A stretch of 32,062 nt of DNA from Gammaproteobacteria bacterium (GCA_049190255.1 JAIVWA010000001.1:520-32581), one strand, 5' to 3'; shown: positions 12,390 through 25,212, counted from the first letter of the stretch. Notes: generated by a model not told the origin, from the letters alone. Program-made: numbers and translations.

Positions 12390-13406
12390 ATGCCACGAAA
12401 AGCACGCATAGATGCGCCGGGAGCTCTTCATCACATCGTCATACGGGGGATTGAACGAAAACCGATATTCAAAGATTCTCTAGACTATCAAAACTTTATC
12501 GAGCGACTATCAAATATTCTGAGCGAATCTTCGACACCGTGTTTCGCATGGGTTTTGATGACCAATCACGCCCATTTGTTGCTGAGAACCGGTCTGACGT
12601 CGATTTCTACCGTAATGCGTCGCCTACTGACCGGTTATGCACAACAATTTAACCGGCGCCATCGACGTTACGGCCATTTATTTCAGAACCGGTACAAGTC
12701 TTTCCTGTGTGAGGAGGAGCTCTATCTTCTTGAGTTGGTTCGATATATTCACTTGAACCCGATTCGGGCAGGTATGGTAGAAGATTTAAAGGCGCTGAAT
12801 TCTTATTCCCGCAGCGGTCACTCTGTGATAATGGGACGGGTCAAGCATGACTGGCAGGATACGCATTATGTGCTGGCGCGTTTCGGTGACTCGGTAAAAG
12901 AAGCCAGAAAATCCTATTTGAGGTTTGTTCGAAAGGCCATTAATCAGGGGCGCAGACCCGATCTTGTTGGAGGTGGACTGCTTCGATCGATTGGTGGCTG
13001 GTCAGCGCTAAAGGCCATTCGGGATACCGAAACGCGGGTCATCAGTGATGAACGCATCCTTGGGAGCAGCGAATTTGTCGAAACGGTGCTGAAATCAGCC
13101 AATGAGGCCTATGAACGGAAGACTGTAATTCAGGCCAAAGGTATTAATCTGGACCGCCTGATTGGTATGGTTGCCGGCAGACTGGATATGGATGTTGATT
13201 TGATTCTAAGTTCGAGTCGTCAGAGGACGGTTGCCTTGGCAAGATCGATCATTTGCTGTTTAGCTGTTGATCAGTTGATGCTCAGCGGAACTTTGGTTGC
13301 CAGCCGACTGAATTTGACACCGTCTGCGGTCAGCAAGCTTGTAAGCCGCGGGCGTCTGGAAACGGAAACCAGGGAAATTGCCAAAGAGCTGCCTGAAGTC
13401 AAATAG
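12390..13406 (+). CDS. HUH Y1 (RAYT/IS200-like) transposase with C-terminal HTH extension
   Basis: MPRKARI...HHIVIRG, HUH motif NHAH, GHLFQNRYKS, catalytic Tyr in RYIHLNP; tail ARSIIC...SRLNLTPSAVSKLV. Confidence 0.93.
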   Translation: MPRKARIDAPGALHHIVIRGIERKPIFKDSLDYQNFIERLSNILSESSTPCFAWVLMTNHAHLLLRTGLTSISTVMRRLLTGYAQQFNRRHRRYGHLFQNRYKSFLCEEELYLLELVRYIHLNPIRAGMVEDLKALNSYSRSGHSVIMGRVKHDWQDTHYVLARFGDSVKEARKSYLRFVRKAINQGRRPDLVGGGLLRSIGGWSALKAIRDTETRVISDERILGSSEFVETVLKSANEAYERKTVIQAKGINLDRLIGMVAGRLDMDVDLILSSSRQRTVALARSIICCLAVDQLMLSGTLVASRLNLTPSAVSKLVSRGRLETETREIAKELPEVK

Positions 13407-15131: not shown

Positions 15132-16202
15132 TTAGTTTTGCAGATTGCACAACAGGAAGTGCTCCTCAAAAACTGATCCGATGAGCAGCGTGTTTTCAAA
15201 GACGGCCGCCACACTGGAACCCGAAAGCGGTTGGCCATTGTTCAGATAGATCTCTTTTACGGTGTGCTGACCGGATTCTTTTATGGTCACCTTTATCACC
15301 TGGGATGGTGATAACACTTTGGGGTCTTTGGAATGTTTAACGAAGGTCAAAAGCTTGGGGTGGGAACCGACCCATAAATCACCCCTTGGATCAATTTCGA
15401 TATTGTCCACGCCGGTACCGGCCTCTATCGTGCTGCGCAAGGACAGGTCCCCGGTATTGCGGTTTCGATCATATACATAAATTTTTTGTGCCACAGTTGC
15501 CGCAACATAAACCGTTTGGCCATCTGAGCTTATATTGATGCCGTTGGCGTAGGCAAGCGCTTGGGCAACTTTACGAAAGCCTTTGCCATCGTAGTAGAGC
15601 ACATAGGACCGCGCCAATTGGAGATACTCCTCCGCCATACGCCCAAACGCAGTGGCGTTGCCATGATCGTTGGTTACGTAAAAGGCGGCGGGTCCAACCG
15701 GGAGCACATCATTGGGGCTGTGCATCAAGGCTCCTGAAACCGACTGCCGGTGAACCAGTTTGCCGCCCCGATAATCAAAAATTTCAACAAAGTGACCATC
15801 CCGACGATGATTCACCACGAAAAGAGAAGAAGTCCCATCCCCGGCCATCCACAAACCGATGCCATGGGGGTTAAGTTCTTTGTCAAAGCCAACTGTCAGG
15901 TTTACCAGCTGCGAGTTGGCTGAACTCAGGTCAAACCCGTAAATGGCCCCCTGACGCGGCTGTGCGGCGTCGGACCACCGGGCCCTGCGGTCGGCGGAAG
16001 AAATAAAAGCCAGGCCTGTTCGCGGATGGATGGTGATGTCCTCAGAGCTTAAAACGCCTGATATGGACTTGCTCTGACCTTTAAAATGCGGCTTGATTTC
16101 CCTGAATTCCCCGGCATCGTAAAACGTCTTCACCATGAAGCCCGCTAAAATGAGCACCAGCACCAGCAAGGTTAGGATTGTATTTCTCAGATATTTTGAC
16201 AT
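15132..16202 (-). CDS. Paraoxonase/arylesterase-like six-bladed beta-propeller lactonase
   Basis: SEDITI...GLAFISS, NPHGI, PNDVLPVGPAAFYVTNDH, ANGINISSDG, VDNIEID, WVGSHP; N-terminal hydrophobic anchor. Confidence 0.85.
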   Translation of the reverse strand: MSKYLRNTILTLLVLVLILAGFMVKTFYDAGEFREIKPHFKGQSKSISGVLSSEDITIHPRTGLAFISSADRRARWSDAAQPRQGAIYGFDLSSANSQLVNLTVGFDKELNPHGIGLWMAGDGTSSLFVVNHRRDGHFVEIFDYRGGKLVHRQSVSGALMHSPNDVLPVGPAAFYVTNDHGNATAFGRMAEEYLQLARSYVLYYDGKGFRKVAQALAYANGINISSDGQTVYVAATVAQKIYVYDRNRNTGDLSLRSTIEAGTGVDNIEIDPRGDLWVGSHPKLLTFVKHSKDPKVLSPSQVIKVTIKESGQHTVKEIYLNNGQPLSGSSVAAVFENTLLIGSVFEEHFLLCNLQN

Positions 16203-16242: not shown

Positions 16243-16343
16243 ATTAGAGCGTTTGTCAGAATAACGCAGCGATAGCGGTGATTTGTTGGATCTTCTCAGG
16301 ATCGTCGATAACCTCCAATATGGGCTGATCCAAACGCTCTAAT
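16243..16343. mobile_element. 101-bp MITE-like element with perfect 13-bp terminal inverted repeats
   Basis: ATTAGAGCGTTTG (16243-16255) and CAAACGCTCTAAT (16331-16343). Confidence 0.65.
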
Positions 16344-16576
16344 ATTTTAATATAGCGGTTGTCATGTTAATAGCAAGTTTAAGTTGTTACACATTAAATT
16401 TTCTCCTGATAGCAAATCTGGCAAACGGAACATACTTCAGACAACCGCTATAATCTGTCTTGAAAATTTTGTTATTCGATCGTATTAACTATAGTGTCCG
16501 TGCACAAATGGCAGGTTTTGGTTCAGAGCACGTGTCGCGGCGTAGCCCTTGGGCGAAGACTGAAGGCTTGAGCAAT

Positions 16577-16910
16577 ATGGAAAAAAACACTCCCGTTATT
16601 GAATTTGCTAAATTAAAATTTTCTTTTTCTGATACGAGGGTCCTTTTTGAGAATCTTTCATTAAAGCTGAACTCCGGCAGTTTCTACCTGATCCGGGGGC
16701 CATCCGGATCGGGCAAGTCGACCTTTCTGCGCTTGATCAACCGCCTGGAGGAGCCTTCGGCCGGCAACATATTCTTTAACGGCCGCCGACTGGCATCCTA
16801 TAGCCCGCCTTTGCTGCGGCGCTCGATTTTATATATTCAGCAAACACCGACCGCCATCGACGGGACGGTCCGGCAAAATTTACTGCTGGGGTTCACCTTT
16901 AAAAACAACC
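16577..16910 (+). pseudogene. 5' half of a FetA/YbbL-like ABC ATPase
   Basis: Walker A GPSGSGKST, INRLEEP, GTVRQNL; signature and Walker B are missing. Confidence 0.8.
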
Positions 16911-17081
16911 GGACAGATTCTGGCCGGGGCCGATCCGGTGCAGGCCATCCGCTATCAGATCATCGTGATGGTCATGCTGGTGGGATCAACGGCCATCGGA
17001 TCGCTGATAGTGGTTTACCTGGTGCGCAAACTGTGCTTCGGACCGGGTGAGCGGCTGCTGCTGCAACCAACCAATCTGTGA
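16908..17081 (+). pseudogene. fetB: 3' end of a FetB/YbbM (UPF0014) permease
   Basis: A different frame reads TGQILAGADPVQAIRYQIIVMVMLVGSTAIGSLIVVYL...stop at 17081. Confidence 0.8.
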
Positions 17082-17150
17082 CCTCTGCCCAAAAGTACCC
17101 TTTGCATTTGATTATTTGGCTTTAACGATTGAGAATGACAGGACACTAAT

Positions 17151-18563
17151 ATGAAATCAATTGAAAATGATTCCGAAGGCTTTCAGCGCTTATCCCATGT
17201 GAGCGTCGAAAATGCCGTTTATGGTATATTTTGGCTGGATGCTGAAGGCCGGATCTATCGTGCTAATGATGCTGCCTGCCGCCTGCTGGGATATACAAAG
17301 AAAGAGCTATTGGGTATGAAGGTCTCAGATTTTGATCCCGATTATCAGGCACAAGAATTTACGATTTTTTGGAAAAAATTAAAGAAATTAGGAGAATACA
17401 ATATTGAATCCAGGCATAGAAGAAAAGACGGCAGTTATTATCCTGTTGAAATATCCTCTTGTTATGTCGATTTCGAAGGGCAAGGTTATAGTTGTACGTT
17501 TTTTCGCGATATCACCGAACGCAAGCACTCGGAGGAGTCTTTGCGAACTACTTTAAAGGAATTGGAGATACTTAAAGAGCGACTTCAAGAAGAGAATTTT
17601 TACCTGCAAGAAGAAATTAAGCTGGAGCATAATTTCGGAGAAATAATTGGCCAAAGCGAAGTCTTCAAAAAAGCGCTCATGCAGGTGGAGCAGGTGGCCA
17701 TTACCGATACGACGGTTTTCATTAACGGTGAAACAGGGACGGGAAAGGAACTGATTGCCCGCGCCATTCATGATATCAGTTCCAGGAAAAACCGACCGTT
17801 GGTAAAGGTAAATTGCGCGGCAATACCGCTAGACTTGATCGAGAGCGACTTGTTTGGGCATGAAAAAGGCGCTTTTACTGGAGCGCTCTCCCAAAAAATC
17901 GGTAGATTCGAACTGGCAGACGAGGGGACTATCTTTTTGGATGAGATCGGAGATATACCCAAAGAACTGCAGGTCAAGCTGTTGAGAGTATTGCAAGAAG
18001 GAGAGTTTGAGAGATTGGGAAACCCGAATACGATAAAGGTGGACGTCAGGGTAATCGCTGCAACCAATCGTGACATTGAAAAAATGGTGGCCGTTGGAGA
18101 TTTTCGCGAGGATCTTTTTTACAGGCTAAACGTCTTTCCTCTTAATTCACCGCCACTCAGAAAGCGTATAGACGACATCCCCATGCTGGTTAAGCACTTC
18201 ATACAGAAATACAGCGCCAAGACCGGCAAAATGATTCAAACCATACCTAAGTCGGCCATGGACACACTGCAGTCTTACCACTGGCCGGGCAATGTTCGTG
18301 AATTGGAAAACATAATAGAGCGCGCTCTGGTCATTAGCCAGGGAACCAAACTGGAGTTAGGCGATTGGTTTTCACGCCTGGAAAGCGAGGACAACCAAAA
18401 ATATATCCTTTCGATGCAGGATTTAGAAAGAAAACATATTCTAAAGGTTCTGGATCTAACATCATGGCGAGTAAGCGGAAAAGGCGGCGCAGCGGAAATA
18501 CTCGATTTAAAGCCCACCACGCTGGAGGCCAGGATGAAAAAAATGGGAATTGAGCGTGCCTAA
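17151..18563 (+). CDS. PAS-domain sigma54-dependent transcriptional activator (FhlA-like tail)
   Basis: PAS domain (GRIYRANDAACRLLGY, RHRRKDGS); GETGTGKE, GAFTGA, FLDEIG, WPGNVRELEN; C-terminal HTH. Confidence 0.95.
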   Translation: MKSIENDSEGFQRLSHVSVENAVYGIFWLDAEGRIYRANDAACRLLGYTKKELLGMKVSDFDPDYQAQEFTIFWKKLKKLGEYNIESRHRRKDGSYYPVEISSCYVDFEGQGYSCTFFRDITERKHSEESLRTTLKELEILKERLQEENFYLQEEIKLEHNFGEIIGQSEVFKKALMQVEQVAITDTTVFINGETGTGKELIARAIHDISSRKNRPLVKVNCAAIPLDLIESDLFGHEKGAFTGALSQKIGRFELADEGTIFLDEIGDIPKELQVKLLRVLQEGEFERLGNPNTIKVDVRVIAATNRDIEKMVAVGDFREDLFYRLNVFPLNSPPLRKRIDDIPMLVKHFIQKYSAKTGKMIQTIPKSAMDTLQSYHWPGNVRELENIIERALVISQGTKLELGDWFSRLESEDNQKYILSMQDLERKHILKVLDLTSWRVSGKGGAAEILDLKPTTLEARMKKMGIERA

Positions 18564-18684
18564 ACCTCTGCACCGATAGTTGATCTTCTTAGACCCCCCA
18601 AAACATACCACATTGATAGAGCCTCGTTTCAATATTTATGGCAGTGATAAAGAAGTGTGCTCTGACTTGAACCGGTAACACTTC

Positions 18685-18719
18685 TCCCCATATAATGGGA
18701 TATTCTCAATATGTTGGGA
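18685..18719. promoter_or_regulatory. Tandem palindromic enhancer sites, consensus TCCCAATATATTGGGA
   Basis: TCCCCATATAATGGGA (18685-18700) and TCTCAATATGTTGGGA (18704-18719), each 14/16 to the perfect palindrome. Confidence 0.65.
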
Positions 18720-18818
18720 ACACTTCCTTTTCTCTTCAAAACCCAGTCCTGAATGTCATTACTCTTATTAGTTATAAAATTCAATTGGTTAAAATCCATT
18801 TTGATAGCTTCGGCAGAA

Positions 18819-18834
18819 TTGGTACATTTTTTGA
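18819..18834 (+). promoter_or_regulatory. Sigma54 -24/-12 promoter of the trx-rdhBAC operon
   Basis: TTGGTACATTTTTTGA (GG-N10-GA variant), about 100 bp downstream of the enhancer sites; IHF-like ATTCAATTGGTTA lies between. Confidence 0.65.
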
Positions 18835-18884
18835 AGTATAGAAATGTAATCGAATTTAATAAGGATTGGCAAGGCCTATCAACT

Positions 18885-19217
18885 ATGAATCACAAACTGA
18901 TAAATACGCACATGAGTGACAATGGCTTTAGTATTGAGAATCTTCCGACCGAGAAACCAATGGTTGTTGAATTTAACGCAACCTGGAGCGGTCCTTGCCA
19001 TATAATGGAGCCGGTGTTGGAAAGCGCGGCCGGAATATATGGCCACAAGATTAATTTTCATAGGGTGGACATAGACGACTTCCCAGAAATAACCAGGCAT
19101 TTTGGTGTCAGAAAAGTGCCGACAATACTAATCTTCAATAGAGGCAGGCTGGTGGATTTTGCTGTCGGGGCAATATCACGCAGGGATCTGGCGTCGAAGC
19201 TGGATAAAGTATTGTAA
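18885..19217 (+). CDS. Thioredoxin-like protein with monothiol WSGPC motif
   Basis: VVEFNATWSGPCHIM...VDID...FGVRKVPTILIF; start placed downstream of the sigma54 promoter. Confidence 0.85.
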   Translation: MNHKLINTHMSDNGFSIENLPTEKPMVVEFNATWSGPCHIMEPVLESAAGIYGHKINFHRVDIDDFPEITRHFGVRKVPTILIFNRGRLVDFAVGAISRRDLASKLDKVL

Positions 19218-19271
19218 GCCAGAATCAACAGGGAATCTTAAAACATAACCGCAAGAAAGAAAGGATCGATC

Positions 19272-19574
19272 ATGGGTATTTTTACAGCAAATGAAATGTT
19301 GTTCTTCTTTTTGGGTGTTTTGGGCACATCATTGACCTTTACGCTTATTTATCTCAGAAAAACTTTTCCTTTCAGGTGGCATTCGACTACGCTCGCTGCT
19401 TCGGGCATCATGCTTGCTCTTTTTACGATTGCCTGGTCGGTAAGCAGTCTTCTGGAAAACGAGGCTCGGGCATCTGGTATGGGCCTCCTGATTTTTGGCG
19501 TGACCACGCTTATTTGCTTCGGCCTTGCCAGGCAACTGGTTGCCAAAGAAATGAAGCTGCTAAAGCCCAGCTAA
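19272..19574 (+). CDS. rdhB: Reductive dehalogenase membrane anchor
   Basis: 100 aa, three hydrophobic segments, WSVSSLLENEARASGMG motif, directly upstream of rdhA. Confidence 0.8.
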   Translation: MGIFTANEMLFFFLGVLGTSLTFTLIYLRKTFPFRWHSTTLAASGIMLALFTIAWSVSSLLENEARASGMGLLIFGVTTLICFGLARQLVAKEMKLLKPS

Positions 19575-19646
19575 ACGGCCTCGCAGCAGGATGACTGATC
19601 CTATAAAACTGCTTAATAATTACTAAAATTAAAGGAGAAACGTATC

Positions 19647-20978
19647 ATGGCAATCACACAAATTCCCCCAAAGGCATCCCCCGAGCCCAAAAAGCGGATT
19701 AAGGGCCTGAGCCGCCGTAACTTTTTTAAATATTCTTTAGCTTCCGGTGTGGGCGTTGGGGCCGCGGTAATGGGGGCTGACAAGCTTATTCCTGCGGTGG
19801 GCACTTCAGCCGAAGCAGCCCCTAAGATGGGTAAAGAGCATGATTCCATTCCGATCGAGATCGCAAAAGACTACAAGCGGATGAATCAAAAAAACACGAT
19901 ATTTTGCCGTTTCGGCTGGGATCCCAAGATAATACCGTTAGGAAAAGAGTTCGGCGGAAAATTCCACGGCATGATACCGCCGGCCGGACAGCCCGGATGG
20001 ACCGAGGTGGAAAGCGCTTTGAGCCTGGCCGCCTGGTCGGTGGATCATGACGCCGCCACCAATAGCGAATTCGGAATCCCCAATCAGGGCCTTTACGCCT
20101 GGGAAGGTAAAATTAACAAACGCCAGACGGTTTTCGACACTCCCCGGCAGGCTACCAGCAAAGTAAAACGGGCGGCACGTTTTTTGGGGGCAGACCTGGT
20201 CGGCATCTGTGATTATGATGAGCGTTGGGTCTATTCAGACTTCTTCAATCCATTCACCGGCAAGGCCACCCCGGGTGAGTTTCCCTTCAAGCCAAAAAGC
20301 GTGGTGGTTCTGGCCCTGGAGATGGATTACGATGCGTTTCGCGCAGCGCCATCTCTGATTGCTTCTGCCGCCGCCGGCAACATCTACTCCAATATGGCCA
20401 GCATTGCTCACAAAGTCGCCACATTTATAAGACAATTAGGCTATAATGCCATCCCTTGCGGCAATGATTCCGCCATGAGTATTCCTCTGGCCGTTTCCGC
20501 CGGATTGGGCGAGTTGGGTAGAAACGGACTTCTGATTACAGAAAAATACGGGCCGCGGGTAAGGCTTTGCAAGGTAATCACCGATCTTGAACTGACGGCC
20601 GGTAAACCCATCACTTTTGGTGTTCGGAAATTCTGCGAAGTTTGCTTGAAATGCGCCGACCAATGCCCGGGTAAAGCCATATCCCATGATAAAAAAGCAA
20701 GTTTCAAAACTACGACCATATCAAATAATCCCGGGGTTAAAAAGTGGTGTATCGACGGCGATAAGTGTTTTGCCTTTTGGGCGAAAAACGGTGGAGACTG
20801 CGGAAACTGCATAGCAAGCTGTCCCTATAACAAAATCGACGATTGGCATCACAGTCTGACCAAAGCGGCCACCCTGACGCCGGCCAAGCCGGTGCTGCGC
20901 TATTTTGACGAATTATTCGGTTACGGCAAGACCTACAACGAAAAGGCTATGGAGTCGTGGTGGAAAATCAAATCCTAA
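19647..20978 (+). CDS. rdhA: Respiratory-type reductive dehalogenase catalytic subunit
   Basis: Tat motif SRRNFFK; GADLVGI, AGLGELGRNG, GPRVRL; Fe-S motifs CEVCLKCADQCP and C-x10-CGNCIASCP. Confidence 0.96.
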   Translation: MAITQIPPKASPEPKKRIKGLSRRNFFKYSLASGVGVGAAVMGADKLIPAVGTSAEAAPKMGKEHDSIPIEIAKDYKRMNQKNTIFCRFGWDPKIIPLGKEFGGKFHGMIPPAGQPGWTEVESALSLAAWSVDHDAATNSEFGIPNQGLYAWEGKINKRQTVFDTPRQATSKVKRAARFLGADLVGICDYDERWVYSDFFNPFTGKATPGEFPFKPKSVVVLALEMDYDAFRAAPSLIASAAAGNIYSNMASIAHKVATFIRQLGYNAIPCGNDSAMSIPLAVSAGLGELGRNGLLITEKYGPRVRLCKVITDLELTAGKPITFGVRKFCEVCLKCADQCPGKAISHDKKASFKTTTISNNPGVKKWCIDGDKCFAFWAKNGGDCGNCIASCPYNKIDDWHHSLTKAATLTPAKPVLRYFDELFGYGKTYNEKAMESWWKIKS

Positions 20979-21038
20979 CCGCCGAGCCCGCAGATTAAAC
21001 GTTTCATGAAAAAATGATAGCTTGCTGGCAACGTAATC

Positions 21039-21064
21039 TGGTGACGCCCACCAAGGCGTCACCA
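21039..21064 (+). other. 10-bp perfect hairpin between rdhA and rdhC (no U-tract)
   Basis: TGGTGACGCC-caccaa-GGCGTCACCA; could stabilise the upstream mRNA or attenuate read-through. Confidence 0.55.
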
Positions 21065-21153
21065 ACAATCCAAGACCGGAAAGGTTTGCTCAAATCGGCT
21101 GGGCGCCGGTTTCAGTCTATCCGAAATCTAAACAAGCTGCCTGCAATATAGCG

Positions 21154-22359
21154 ATGGCTACCATGCTGATAAAAACGCACAGGACATCCGAGTGGAAATT
21201 TTTTCTAAGGCTGTCTGTAGTGATAAGCTTGCTGGGGGCATATTTCTACGGTGTTTCACTCCGGAGTCAAAACGAGCTTACTCTTTTGGGTCAATTCTAC
21301 GAAACAGGTGCTGTATTTCAAAAAATCAGCGACACGCCTTTAATCTACAATGTCACCTCAAAAAATGATGCAAGCCTTCTTCTCTCTGTGGCCATAGAAA
21401 CAACCAACGGCTATGGAGGTCCGACCACAATTGCCACTGAGGTGGACGCCAAAGGAATTATACAGAGGGTATTGGTTCTGGAACATAAAGAGACGCCCGC
21501 ATTTTTTAAGAATTTGCAAGATGAAAAATACTTCAAACAATTTGAAGGCCTAAAGGTAAATTCGGTCTTTGTGTTGGATGAAGATATCGATGTTGTGAGC
21601 GGGGCCACGGTCTCTTCTAAAGCATTTTGTCAAGCCGTACAAGTGGGGGGCCATAACATAGGAAGGGAATTGCTAAATATGTCTATTGCGCAACAAGAAA
21701 ACCCTTTCATTTTCGGAATAAAGGAAACTATTCTCATCATATTGTTTGTCTTGGTGATGATCGGTTCCATAAAAAAAATTGCGGTGCTGCGGTACTTCAC
21801 CTTAGCGGCCGGTGGAGTTATTCTTGGTTTTTATCTAAATTCGGCCATCTCTCTTTCCAATATCGCATCGATCCTTTTGGGATATTTCCCATCTATTACT
21901 GAAAAAGCGTTCTGGTGGCTTTTGGTTGGGGGGGCACTGCTCATGATTCTCTTCTACGGTAAGAACCTCTATTGTTACTGGCTTTGCCCTTTTGGGGCAA
22001 TCCAGGAATTCGCCACTAAAATAGGCGGAGTAAACATCAAACTCAGCCGGCGCACATTAACCGTCGCCAAGTACATAGGCCCCTGCCTTACGTGGTTGGC
22101 GTTAATGATCATTTTCCTTACTTCGAATACAACCGTGGCCAGTTACGAGCCCTTTGCCGCTATATTCGGTTTGCGGGGCACATCCGTGCAATGGTTCATA
22201 ATGCCTACGGTGATACTGGGCTCTTTTTTCATTACCAGGTTCTGGTGCAGATTTTTCTGTCCGGTGGGTGTGGTTTTGAAAATTACAGGCCGAATTAGAG
22301 CTCAAGCCAAACGGGGATTAAAAGGTATAAAAAAATGGAAAACAAGGGCAGCATATTAG
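21154..22359 (+). CDS. rdhC: RdhC (NosR/NirI-like) FMN-binding, Fe-S membrane protein
   Basis: GYGGP, flavinylation motif DVVSGATVSS, multiple TM helices, CYWLCPFG and CRFFCPVG. Confidence 0.9.
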   Translation: MATMLIKTHRTSEWKFFLRLSVVISLLGAYFYGVSLRSQNELTLLGQFYETGAVFQKISDTPLIYNVTSKNDASLLLSVAIETTNGYGGPTTIATEVDAKGIIQRVLVLEHKETPAFFKNLQDEKYFKQFEGLKVNSVFVLDEDIDVVSGATVSSKAFCQAVQVGGHNIGRELLNMSIAQQENPFIFGIKETILIILFVLVMIGSIKKIAVLRYFTLAAGGVILGFYLNSAISLSNIASILLGYFPSITEKAFWWLLVGGALLMILFYGKNLYCYWLCPFGAIQEFATKIGGVNIKLSRRTLTVAKYIGPCLTWLALMIIFLTSNTTVASYEPFAAIFGLRGTSVQWFIMPTVILGSFFITRFWCRFFCPVGVVLKITGRIRAQAKRGLKGIKKWKTRAAY

Positions 22360-22448
22360 CGGCGGTATTCGCCAATCTGGTCATAACCGGAACATTGGTA
22401 CTTATTTTAATTTACTTTTATCAGGTTCTTTTCACAGATATAATGTGA
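22335..22448 (+). CDS. Unannotated 37-aa single-TM peptide
   Basis: MENKGSILAAVFANLVITGTLVLILIYFYQVLFTDIM*; preceded by AAAGG; overlaps the rdhC stop. Confidence 0.55.
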   Translation: MENKGSILAAVFANLVITGTLVLILIYFYQVLFTDIM

Positions 22449-22516
22449 TTGGCTCGTATAGAAGGGAAATCAGTCAACATGAAACGAATTGACAATTGTT
22501 TCAAAGGTGGTGTGAG

Positions 22517-23320
22517 ATGGCCATATTTTTACTTTCGCGAGGTTCGTACTCCTGGGGTTCACAAATAGCGGGGATGGTGGCAAAAAAACTTGGCTATGCG
22601 TGCATTTCACGGGAGGATATTCTCAAAACATCAGGGAAATTCGATTTACCGGAGATCAAGTTGATCAATGCGTTTAACGAGATGCCTTCATTGATAGACC
22701 GGTTTATAGGAAGTAGAAAAGAAGAATACCTTTCCTATCTTCACGCCGCCATTCTGAAAAACGTACAGCAGGACAATGTGGTGGCACATGGTTTTGCCGG
22801 CCTATTCCTGATCCACAATATATCTCATGTCATCAAGGTTAGAATAACCATAGATCAAAAAGACCGCATCGCACTGGCCCAAAAAGAAGGCGGCATGGGA
22901 GCGGGCGATGCTTTCAGAGCGCTTAAGAAAATTGATGCCCAGAGGCAAAAGTGGGGTCAATATATGTTCGGTGTGGATTTGTCGGACTCTTCAAACTACC
23001 ATATGACCTTCCATGTCAACAGGCAAACCATCAACGACGCAGTTGAGCTCATTTGCTACGCGGCTGGGTTAAACCGTTACCGCACCACAATTGAATCTCA
23101 GAAGTCGCTCGATGACCAGTTGCTGGCCTCGGAGGTGAAGGTAGCCCTTTTGGAAATAAGACCGGACGCCGTGGTAAACTCGGATAGCGGCCGGATTTAT
23201 GTTGAAACCAGAGAAAACGGTATGGACACCAACGAGGTCAAACATATGATCAGTAAAACCGCGTTAGAGGTACTGGGTGTCAAACAAGTAGAAGTCAACA
23301 TTAAGCCCAGTTCGGCTTAG
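22517..23320 (+). CDS. Cytidylate-kinase-like protein with C-terminal BON-like extension
   Basis: LSRGSYSWGSQIA...LGY...SRE, VVAHG, IKVRI, YHMTFHV; tail GVKQVEVNI. Confidence 0.75.
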   Translation: MAIFLLSRGSYSWGSQIAGMVAKKLGYACISREDILKTSGKFDLPEIKLINAFNEMPSLIDRFIGSRKEEYLSYLHAAILKNVQQDNVVAHGFAGLFLIHNISHVIKVRITIDQKDRIALAQKEGGMGAGDAFRALKKIDAQRQKWGQYMFGVDLSDSSNYHMTFHVNRQTINDAVELICYAAGLNRYRTTIESQKSLDDQLLASEVKVALLEIRPDAVVNSDSGRIYVETRENGMDTNEVKHMISKTALEVLGVKQVEVNIKPSSA

Positions 23321-23349
23321 CCACGGGTTGATTTCCCGGTGGTTTATTA

Positions 23350-24477
23350 TTAAGATCGCACAAACCAGCTTACCGGACGTCGCAGGCTGACCGGTTCCGG
23401 ATATGTTTTTAAATAGCCGACCCGTAACACAAACTGCGAAACAACATCGGCCTCGTGGTTGGCCGCAATCTGGTTCAATCCCTCTTTTTCCTCCAGGTAC
23501 TGGGTCATGGGTTGAATCGCGATGTTTCGTTCGCGTGCCAGCAGGGCCATTTGTTCAAATCTTCTGCCGGTTTCAATTAAGTCGGCTACCGTTTGACCTT
23601 CACTGGTAATGATGAGCCAGCCACCGCCCTGCCGGGCGAGTTCGGCCGTAAGGTCAACGCTCTGCTTGCGGAAACTTGGTTTCATAAAATCCTGGGGTTT
23701 AAGGAAATTTCTGACGAACCAGCCCTTGAAGCCGCGGATCTCCATACCTTCAACCGTCAGTCCATCACGGTAGCGCTCGGCATCCTTGTTGCTGAGCCGC
23801 ACCCAGCGGACCAGTTCCCTTTGGGCGTCATCCCGCTGAACCTGGAGCCGAAAATTTTCAATGGCCCCTTCTTCAATGCATTTTGCATGCTCGGTGCCTT
23901 TCGGAAAGTAAAACAGCCGGCCCTTTAATGGTTCCGACAATGCGTGAATATCCTCTTTTTTAATCTCATCCGGAAGATAACCGTGCTTAACCGTCATGCG
24001 CAGCTTAAGCCGTTCAAGCGGATAATCGATGGGCCTGGCAGGCTTTAAGAAAACCCGTATGATGTCCTTGCGGAATGGGTTGTCGGCCATGATCTCCATT
24101 TCAGCCTTTAAGCCGTATGGGCCGGCAGCAAGCGAGAGGTTTTCAGCAAAGGCACCGATGGACAGCAGGGCCTCCCGGTTGTCGGGGTCAACTTCAGATA
24201 GTCTGCGTTGCGGGTCAAGGCCAATGATCCATTCATTTTTGTTCACTATCCTAACAAACCAGGGCTGGGAATTATGACCGCTGGGAGCCAGGGATGCATG
24301 GTATAAGATGGCACCACCGCTCTTATCCAATTGATCGGTTAGGGGTTTTGAAAGATTCTGATCAGGCAAATCAGCGCGTCGAATACTCGAGCAGGCAGAA
24401 AGTATCGACCCGCTCCCCACCGCCATCGATCCGGCTGCCAGGGTTTTCTTCAAAAAACTTCTACGATTTAATTTCAT
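23350..24477 (-). CDS. Tat-exported Acg-type FMN nitroreductase-like lipoprotein
   Basis: NRRSFLK plus lipobox LSAC; APSGHNSQPW, DPDNREALLSIGAFAENL, LRVGY. Confidence 0.85.
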   Translation of the reverse strand: MKLNRRSFLKKTLAAGSMAVGSGSILSACSSIRRADLPDQNLSKPLTDQLDKSGGAILYHASLAPSGHNSQPWFVRIVNKNEWIIGLDPQRRLSEVDPDNREALLSIGAFAENLSLAAGPYGLKAEMEIMADNPFRKDIIRVFLKPARPIDYPLERLKLRMTVKHGYLPDEIKKEDIHALSEPLKGRLFYFPKGTEHAKCIEEGAIENFRLQVQRDDAQRELVRWVRLSNKDAERYRDGLTVEGMEIRGFKGWFVRNFLKPQDFMKPSFRKQSVDLTAELARQGGGWLIITSEGQTVADLIETGRRFEQMALLARERNIAIQPMTQYLEEKEGLNQIAANHEADVVSQFVLRVGYLKTYPEPVSLRRPVSWFVRS

Positions 24478-24517
24478 AATGAATCCATTCCTTAGTTTCG
24501 ATACAACATGTATTTTA

Positions 24518-24533
24518 GTCACTATCTGGTGAC
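24518..24533. promoter_or_regulatory. Putative TetR operator 1
   Basis: GTCAC-tatctg-GTGAC upstream of the nitroreductase, next to a minus-strand TATAAT. Confidence 0.75.
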
Positions 24534-24558
24534 ATTATAGACAAAAAAATTTCGGCTA

Positions 24559-25212
24559 TTACGTTGCGCTGCCTGCAAACAGGCCTTGAATCATGGTATC
24601 GATCGCATCTTCCAGCCGTTTCCATCCCTCTTCGGATTCAAGGTCGACGCCATTGTAAAAGCGAATCTGGCGGCCGCGGCTGACCAGATAGCTGATCCCG
24701 GCACCGATAATTGCGCCCATTGCTGCTATATCCGGCCCATTGCCGGTTGAAGGGAAAAACATATCAAAAAAATTCATCATCGTATTCTCCCGGATCGTTT
24801 CCAGTTCAACCGTCAGATCATTGCGTTCGACCATTTCCCAGGCCAGGATCTCCTGGGTAATCGGTCGCTGTCGGATTGCCTGGATGAAATTTCTGCTTAA
24901 TCGGGACAATTGTTCGGTCACAGGCAATCGACTGTATGCTTCGACGTCACCACCGGCAAGCTCCTTTATTGAAGGCCAGAAGTTGCCCTCCCGGCCAAAG
25001 GCGACAATCAGATCCGATAACCCGCCAAAATACCGGTAAATCAAAACTTTATCCACCCCGGCTTCCCTGGCGACGGCATTGACTCCCAGCCCCTTGAAGC
25101 CTTCCCGGGCCAGCAGGGTTCCAACGGCCTGGATCAACCTGGCGCGTGTTGCTTCCCGGTTACGGGGTGTTGCCGGATTAAAAATAAATTTTTTCTTTGC
25201 GGAAGTCACCAT
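24559..25212 (-). CDS. TetR/AcrR family transcriptional regulator
   Basis: TRARLIQAVGTLLAREGFKGLGVNAVAREAGVDKVLIYRYFG. Confidence 0.93.
   Translation of the reverse strand: MVTSAKKKFIFNPATPRNREATRARLIQAVGTLLAREGFKGLGVNAVAREAGVDKVLIYRYFGGLSDLIVAFGREGNFWPSIKELAGGDVEAYSRLPVTEQLSRLSRNFIQAIRQRPITQEILAWEMVERNDLTVELETIRENTMMNFFDMFFPSTGNGPDIAAMGAIIGAGISYLVSRGRQIRFYNGVDLESEEGWKRLEDAIDTMIQGLFAGSAT

Follow-up and report, generated by a model that had tools for sequence, protein, structure and literature searches.

Which genes of a reductive dehalogenase operon belong to the enzyme system, and which only travel with it? The question is raised by positions 17,151 to 23,320 of a 32,062-nucleotide stretch of DNA (the window) recorded under Gammaproteobacteria bacterium (GCA_049190255.1 JAIVWA010000001.1:520-32581). 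An earlier note, made from the sequence alone, had described there an organohalide-respiration operon in which a PAS-domain activator is followed by genes for a thioredoxin, RdhB, RdhA, RdhC, a small transmembrane peptide and a protein resembling cytidylate kinase (CMK-like). Seven open reading frames (ORFs) do follow each other in this order, all on the plus strand (Table 1), and family matches and motifs support a cluster of the respiratory type, with RdhB, RdhC and an RdhA carrying a twin-arginine translocation (Tat) signal. All seven genes are under purifying selection, the ratio of non-synonymous to synonymous substitution rates (dN/dS) being 0.08-0.27 against the related locus L059.

Judging from sequence comparison and structural models, the region is probably a patchily distributed rdhB-rdhA-rdhC cassette for a sigma54-activated, membrane-anchored respiratory RdhA, in which a 37-residue ORF behind rdhC would separately encode the seventh helix of RdhC. 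Gene content, motifs, conservation and a pattern of gene fusion and fission are the directly observed parts of this reading. The operon itself belongs to a known type of gene cluster; the novelty lies in the small ORF. The earlier note had regarded the thioredoxin, the peptide and the CMK-like protein alike as candidate maturation or electron-transfer factors; among them, the small transmembrane ORF alone is kept across related clusters and appears to belong to RdhC, and the other two look like local passengers.

A single-helix ORF behind rdhC

BLAST with the window peptide gave matches in L058 and L059 only, the two loci that share the cassette; neither Pfam nor NCBIfam matched it, and scattered weak matches were seen among 31 members, short helices being poorly detected by profiles. 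Between the window and L058 the ORF shows three synonymous and no non-synonymous changes. When the regions behind rdhC were read directly, a hydrophobic ORF of the same size was present in 12 of 13 loci. A larger RdhC sample comprised the order of genome G798 (30 of 103 genomes), 40 more regions and one plasmid, and its 80 complete RdhC ORFs, collapsed at 90%, gave 61 distinct ones. Counting as split any rdhC with a one-helix ORF of 25-70 aa behind it, 37 are split and 18 end in a fused C-terminal helix; none has both and six have neither, two of these with an ORF just outside the scanned range. Fisher's p for this exclusion is 1e-10, an overstatement given that kin are not independent. On a quick RdhC tree the fused state changes four times, three of the changes being forced by well-supported branches.

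By identical criteria, such ORFs follow 24 of 43 rdhC ends (truncated and duplicate loci dropped), against 13 of 1749 long ORFs of the genome containing the window (G000), 2 of 235 polytopic ORFs and 4 of 145 other ORFs of low-GC loci. A motif like a ribosome-binding site (RBS) precedes 32 of the 37 split ORFs, whose starts occur in all three frames, and 30 of the 37 peptides obey the positive-inside rule. With a profile built from the fused tails, split peptides score a median of 8.3 bits, compared with 2.4-2.5 for other transmembrane helices. Such a helix also ends 22 of 140 representatives (50% clusters) with both CX3CP motifs, at least two of which are among the 61. A programmed -1 frameshift joining rdhC and the peptide was considered and rejected: the A-AAA-AAA found at the overlap in the window is missing in L059, and the starts, in all frames, have their own RBS.

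The small ORF is also found in well-studied pce clusters. For instance, pceC and pceT on the T. lovleyi IAE plasmid NZ_CP058410.1 are separated by a 47-aa single-helix ORF (WP_265555383.1, 'hypothetical protein'), and another occupies the same place in L190, L192 and L193, whose PceC and PceT contain published marker peptides. The L190 ORF and pceC overlap by about 70 nt, so that gene callers would miss the former. The accessible parts of the pce papers describe four pce genes and a six-helix PceC (PMC5928378, PMC8905343, PMC10624902, PMC3403914). We found no description of a small rdhC-linked gene in a literature search outside which lay supplements, subscription papers and book chapters, where a prior mention is possible. 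Sequence and modelling together predict that the ORF is a general feature of rdhC and an overlooked part of RdhC; this small partner is apparently undescribed, and widely conserved.

An AlphaFold2 (AF2) model of a fused RdhC (L186, 41 alignment rows) has six core helices, a mean predicted local distance difference test score (pLDDT) of 90 and a predicted TM-score of 0.86; a seventh helix, residues 403-426, follows a loose linker, with pLDDT of 95-97 over residues 401-420. Complex prediction of the window RdhC with the peptide gave a score of 0.63, and the best of three controls gave 0.00; among solved pairs 116 of 157 attain that mark, among mismatched pairs 2 of 215, a yardstick that applies roughly here, custom alignments having been used. 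The runs agreed in at least 96% of contacts, with a partner pLDDT of at least 75, and place the interface on RdhC residues 295-331 and 343-368, adjoining C365-x3-C369. The prediction supports binding of the small protein to RdhC. A sequence search for a solved structure related to the RdhC membrane domain found none, and fold searches with the fused model, which barely probed that domain, returned matches to the flavin mononucleotide (FMN) domain only.

Could the small protein be real but independent, a translationally coupled factor serving, for example, RdhAB assembly or stability or Tat export, with the fused forms arising by chance read-through? The strict exclusion (a separate ORF behind none of the 18 fused RdhC) and the repeated fusion and fission on the tree argue against this, as do the predicted docking and the loci of 3 kb or more, six split and six fused, in which no rdhA is in view. 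The peptide is weakly conserved, with no invariant column, and four of the 61 RdhC lack the helix; a tatA-like ORF follows the small ORF in L060 and L062 (read by eye), and PceC is about 50-fold less abundant than PceA according to the accessible part of PMC8905343. All of this would suit an independent factor, which we nevertheless consider unlikely.

RdhA, RdhB and RdhC

RdhA scores 238.1 bits against TIGR02486 (curated cut-off 160.35), its Tat motif (Table 1) fits RRxFxK, and its Fe-S motifs are C330-x2-C-x2-C-x3-CP and C374...C385-x2-C-x3-CP. It aligns to PceA of structure 8Q4H (chain A) at E=2e-90, where chain number plus 48 gives the paper's numbering, as checked on V333/Y337. The available text of PMC10624902 assigns catalysis to Y337 and R396, corrinoid contact to K399 and the menaquinone pocket to K489/H495/D515/Y520. 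In the alignment these are kept in the window RdhA as Y247, R306 and K309 and as K396/H402/D421/Y426, respectively; R499 of PceA is Lys406, and V333 is replaced by Ala243. The rdhB-like ORF (100 aa) matches PceB (8Q4H_C) at E=4e-4 and has no Pfam or NCBIfam match. Its three predicted helices and its ExE motif, whose role in the anchor subunit is discussed in the same partly available paper, are, with the K/H/D/Y pocket of RdhA, features of the MOOR-type RdhA2B2.

Close relatives of RdhA are metagenomic and 85-98% identical, and a quick tree places it in a clade of its own with metagenomic relatives of 69-92%. RdhA ortholog groups are delimited by 90% identity to a characterised enzyme. The nearest species-named RdhA is 60% identical and, as the earlier note had stated, the substrate cannot be read from the sequence.

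RdhC has the features that define its family in the accessible part of PMC5928378: the FMN motif [ST]G[AS]Tx[ST], two CX3CP motifs, no C-terminal Fe-S motif, about six helices and an rdhA in the genome. Hydropathy predicts five helices, and the AF2 model of a homolog contains six core helices. Thr152 is invariant in 43 alignment rows and ApbE is encoded in G000; flavinylation of RdhC by ApbE would occur on this residue. In a quick tree the protein groups with RdhC of four genomes of the same order (Shimodaira-Hasegawa-like approximate likelihood ratio test, 88). Relatives are 425 aa long and begin at an upstream start (L059:3517-3588); the corresponding stretch of the window, 21079-21153, has no such start codon, and the N-terminus is consequently uncertain. 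Recent work describes RdhC/PceC as a protein of unknown function (introduction of PMC10624902; available part of PMC8905343).

The thioredoxin and CMK-like genes

The thioredoxin-fold ORF matches PF00085 (E=2.5e-19) and scores 75.7 bits against TIGR01068, below the cut-off of 96.8. In place of the WCGPC dithiol of TrxA it has WSGPC, with Ser at the first, nucleophilic Cys; WSG[PS]C is found in 11 of 12 homologs, one homolog being a fragment, and dN/dS against L059 is 0.27. A 154-aa version beginning at 18753 was rejected because L059 does not preserve it and because it would run across the promoter, which makes 18885 the likely start. The CMK-like protein has RGSYSWG instead of the canonical P-loop GxxxxGK[ST] and no NCBIfam match; the canonical loop, GPAGAGKT, is present in a different ORF elsewhere in G000 (L052). 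A BON label for its C-terminal part was dropped, being without a match in the window and weak in one homolog. An ESM Atlas look-up of this protein returned no result, and the literature search found no paper on CMK-like/BON proteins in sulfate reducers and nothing usable on SxxC thioredoxins.

If thioredoxin, peptide and CMK-like protein were all dedicated maturation or electron-transfer factors replacing RdhT and RdhK, as the earlier note had proposed, their purifying selection and their presence together in L059 (peptide and CMK-like gene also in L058) would be explained, and the two CX3CP motifs of RdhC could be serviced by a thiol protein. The SxxC thioredoxin clade, moreover, has no member above 40% in 300 other genomes of the order (best 37-40%). 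However, L058, whose RdhA is 97% identical, has the same promoter intact and directly before rdhB, without the thioredoxin gene, and the thioredoxin lacks the nucleophilic Cys. Both genes are missing from the four same-order loci with an activator and rdhABC (17-20 kb); among all rdhA and rdhC loci collected, many of them short, neither is seen beyond the window, L058 and L059. CMK-like paralogs occur in 21 of 22 same-genus genomes, with an rdh gene in none of 29 neighbourhoods of about 3.8 kb; the 18 closest, read by eye, contain transporters, two-component and CBS-type genes. Furthermore, in one other genome an activator and a one-cysteine thioredoxin (WCGTS, 39% identity) precede an unrelated beta-lactamase-family gene. 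We thus find the proposal of three dedicated factors quite improbable.

The thioredoxin and CMK-like genes are best read as lineage-specific passengers on which the core does not depend; they are conserved, and a local role is possible. The one-case locus just mentioned (G154, L281:7503-11186) contains a PAS activator 54% identical to that of the window, a -24/-12-like site, the thioredoxin, which has lost its second Cys, and the beta-lactamase-family gene. It suggests that a one-cysteine thioredoxin travels with the regulator, possibly as a recurring module.

Activator, promoter and transcription

The activator is a bacterial enhancer-binding protein (bEBP) with matches to PF00158 (E=2e-72) and PAS_9 and an intact GAFTGA, and activators 43-54% identical to it precede rdhABC in L054-L057. 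The candidate promoter sits after the activator gene, which is therefore probably a separate transcription unit upstream of the operon. The tandem palindromes are kept in L058 and L059, 19 nt apart and with 115 nt from the second to the -24 element; a pattern derived from these very sites has one tandem match in the 4.87 Mb of G000. Spacing of the promoter elements is identical in all three copies. Similar sigma70-like hexamers with the same spacing are seen by eye in L058 and L059; scanned for as a type, sigma70-like sites number 15, against 11.9 expected by chance. The operator is not common to other bEBP-rdhABC clusters, an idea we rejected because their palindromes differ (GATGATAT type) and G154 has none.

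Sigma54 control, claimed in the earlier note, agrees with the presence of rpoN, of a bEBP with GAFTGA and of a conserved -24/-12-like site with palindromes upstream. That such control in the absence of RdhK is unusual does not hold: 22 such activators are reported for 31 deltaproteobacterial clusters in the accessible part of PMC6299228, and bEBPs beside rdh genes, with no CRP/FNR regulators, are described for Deltaproteobacteria in what is available of PMC6299228, 10.1101/630186 and PMC12908670. The absence of RdhK and RdhT holds within the window, where the 29 ORFs scanned include none of the CRP or trigger-factor type; the rest of the genome was not searched for them.

A terminator scan found 10 candidates against 9.7 expected. 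Contigs from relatives at 90-99%, found in the RNA libraries of four marine-sediment and cold-seep studies, span the borders trx-rdhB (X6), rdhB-rdhA (X1, X4, X6), rdhA-rdhC (X1) and rdhC-peptide (X7). Four of 14 listed runs, and then three more, were examined; uncovered stretches prove nothing, and the comparison had no silent-stretch control, flanks differing between strains. This bridging is a weak hint of co-transcription. The stem-loop between rdhA and rdhC has a folding energy of -19.5 kcal/mol (z -5.9, for a segment chosen around it).

Host and distribution

G000 is 4.87 Mb in size and 85% complete. It contains dsrA over the cut-off and dsrD, in agreement with the probable sulfate-reducer host suggested earlier, and also rpoN, ApbE and TatC. 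Genes shared with the Desulfobacterales record L022 are about 59-81% identical, and we therefore infer a Desulfobacterales-like sulfate reducer. No rdhA ortholog was found in 22 same-genus genomes (best match 47%); RdhA at E<=1e-100 occurs in 6 of 400 other genomes of the same order, and RdhC at E<=1e-40 in none of 400 other genomes of a phylum sample.

One may also ask whether the cassette serves organohalide respiration in this host at all, or acts on a non-halide substrate or stays silent because corrinoid or quinone is missing. The catalytic residues, the Tat motif and the quinone site are all kept, purifying selection is strong, contigs of relatives occur in RNA libraries, and comparable deltaproteobacterial clusters are induced by bromophenols (PMC6299228, accessible part). 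Failure to find cobS, MqnC and MenB over cut-off in G000 would fit a non-respiratory role, an observation tempered by the 85% completeness of the genome; the lack of a characterised close RdhA homolog and the broken rdhB of L058 point the same way. We rate a non-respiratory cassette as very unlikely.

Two further genes over the TIGR02486 cut-off are present in G000. One (C48, L002) encodes 389 aa with no evident Tat motif; the other (C252, L003) encodes 479 aa with N-terminal membrane helices and is presumably of the hybrid type. Of 22 same-genus genomes, 19 have comparable genes. Additionally, there is a group of 600-710 aa proteins (L009:2740-4869, P0006-P0016) in which two RdhA-like domains stand in tandem and a Tat motif is not evident; they adjoin ordinary rdhA genes in clostridial-type genomes.

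Features and surroundings of the cassette

Table 1. Genes and candidate signals of the cassette, in window coordinates.
Feature	Position	Strand	Remarks
PAS-AAA+-helix-turn-helix sigma54-dependent activator (bEBP)	17151..18563	+	Profile matches; likely regulator of the downstream operon
Sigma70-like -35/-10, TTGAAC-18-TATAAT	18667..18696	+	-10 inside first palindrome; rival or basal promoter
Two tandem palindromes, CCCATATAATGGG / CTCAATATGTTGGG	18686..18718	.	Candidate activator binding sites
Sigma54 -24/-12-like element, TGGTAC-N5-TTGA	18820..18834	+	Same place in L058 and L059
Thioredoxin-fold protein with WSGPC	18885..19217	+	PF00085; read as a dispensable passenger
rdhB, membrane anchor	19272..19574	+	PceB match; 3 predicted helices; E62-x-E64 motif
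rdhA, reductive dehalogenase	19647..20978	+	TIGR02486; Tat signal SRRNFFK; two Fe-S motifs
10-bp stem-loop, rdhA-rdhC spacer	21039..21064	+	Possible mRNA-stability element; absent in L058
rdhC, membrane flavoprotein	21154..22359	+	FMN_bind and Fer4_5; DVVSGATVS at 146; CX3CP at 274 and 365
37-aa single-helix membrane ORF	22335..22448	+	Overlaps rdhC stop by 25 nt; predicted seventh RdhC helix
Cytidylate-kinase-like protein (PF13189, Cytidylate_kin2)	22517..23320	+	E=3e-29; lacks canonical GK[ST] P-loop; lineage-wide passenger family

Similarity among the window, L058 and L059 covers roughly 17102-23347; beyond it, as far as the sequences extend, they differ, and the cassette thus sits in different contexts. 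In L058 (2294-2594), the thioredoxin gene and the hairpin spacer between rdhA and rdhC are absent and rdhB has a 1-nt deletion; its promoter is 80% identical to that of the window, compared with 96-97% for the genes. A short rdhA-rdhC junction like that of L058 also occurs in RNA run X1.

Two gene fragments meet directly at the left edge (16460-17081), one the 5' portion of a FetA-like ABC ATPase gene and the other the 3' end of a gene for UPF0014 (FetB-like); the junction is either a deletion remnant or an assembly artefact. Next to it, a repeat of about 210 bp (16244-16454), with an internal 13-nt inverted repeat (16351-16363 / 16440-16452), has matches on 27 other G000 contigs; in L058, a similar repeat end lies to the right of the cassette, ahead of a transposase-like remnant. 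Farther left are an arylesterase (paraoxonase-like) gene (15132-16202), not common to L058 or L059, and a Y1 transposase (12390-13406). On the right, 23350-25212 contains a TetR gene and one for an Acg-family nitroreductase whose N-terminus is twin-arginine-like; neither is in L058 or L059.

Proposed mechanism and its weight

In the model that we favour, the PAS activator would bind the tandem palindromes and, on a signal, open the -24/-12 promoter. RdhA would take up a corrinoid and two 4Fe-4S clusters, be exported by Tat and dock on RdhB, with which it would form a quinol-oxidising site as in PceA2B2. The small protein would be made by translational coupling to rdhC, inserted with its N-terminus inside, and packed against RdhC helices 5-6 and the second CX3CP motif, thereby completing the membrane domain. 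RdhC might act as a sub-stoichiometric helper or as an electron-transfer partner.

Several observations weigh against parts of this model. The helix is absent in either form from four of 61 RdhC (L056, L167, L210, L235) and may be dispensable; the likeness of fused and split helices is weak, the window peptide's 7.6 bits lying at about the 95th percentile of controls; and most of the RdhC sample comes from a single clostridial-type order. Regarding the docking, complex prediction tends to accept the two parts of a split gene, controls were picked without regard to their being membrane helices, and our own alignments were used. The -24/-12 match taken alone is at chance level (38 vs 32 expected), and the element ends in TTGA, with two mismatches to the consensus, its support being conservation only; a conserved sigma70-like promoter stands beside it. 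The RNA-library contigs may derive from DNA and demonstrate no single transcript. Finally, the nearest species-named RdhA is distant, rdhB of L058 carries a deletion (error or decay), and, in a genome 85% complete, cobS was not found and MqnC and MenB lie below their cut-offs, which bears on corrinoid and menaquinone supply.

A more general proposal, which we consider evenly balanced, is that RdhC/PceC would be a two-chain membrane flavoprotein in most organohalide respirers. A fifth gene of pceABCT-type clusters would encode the last helix, closing the membrane domain beside the second CX3CP motif, and would be needed for a stable, redox-competent RdhC; PceC studies so far would have lacked this subunit. 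If this is true, expression, reconstitution and structural work on RdhC should include the small partner or use a naturally fused RdhC, and the function of RdhC/PceC becomes directly testable. More incrementally, the candidate organohalide respirers gain an uncultured sulfate-reducer lineage from marine sediment; its RdhA is distant from named enzymes, and the cassette also supplies a candidate operator sequence.

Comparison with known systems

In the accessible parts of their descriptions, the sigma54 rdhABC clusters of Desulfoluna and other marine Deltaproteobacteria (PMC6299228; bioRxiv 10.1101/630186) resemble the window in the upstream bEBP and the -24/-12-like site, and also in Tat-RdhA, RdhB, an RdhC with FMN and CX3CP motifs, and no CRP/FNR regulator. 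By contrast, the window has the order rdhB-rdhA, for which the available part of PMC6299228 gives two exceptions among 26. Four same-order genomes have PAS-bEBP-rdhA-rdhB-rdhC, 42-54% identical to the window; unlike them, the window carries the thioredoxin and CMK-like passengers and a different palindromic operator, and its RdhA does not group with theirs.

As far as the accessible texts go, pceABCT/PceA2B2 (8Q4H; PMC10624902, PMC8905343, PMC5928378) is alike in the catalytic Tyr/Arg, the quinone pocket, the ExE of the anchor and the RdhC motifs, and it also has a hairpin upstream of rdhC and a small single-helix ORF behind pceC. It differs in that the window RdhA is only about 46% identical to the L191 PceA over the aligned part (188/409), and in that the window lacks rdhT and has sigma54 control. 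Lastly, RdhC shares the FMN domain of RnfG/NqrC type with the NosR/NapH/RnfG-NqrC flavoproteins, NosR and NapH profiles matching below cut-off, and, unlike these flavoproteins, it has no C-terminal 4Fe-4S motifs.

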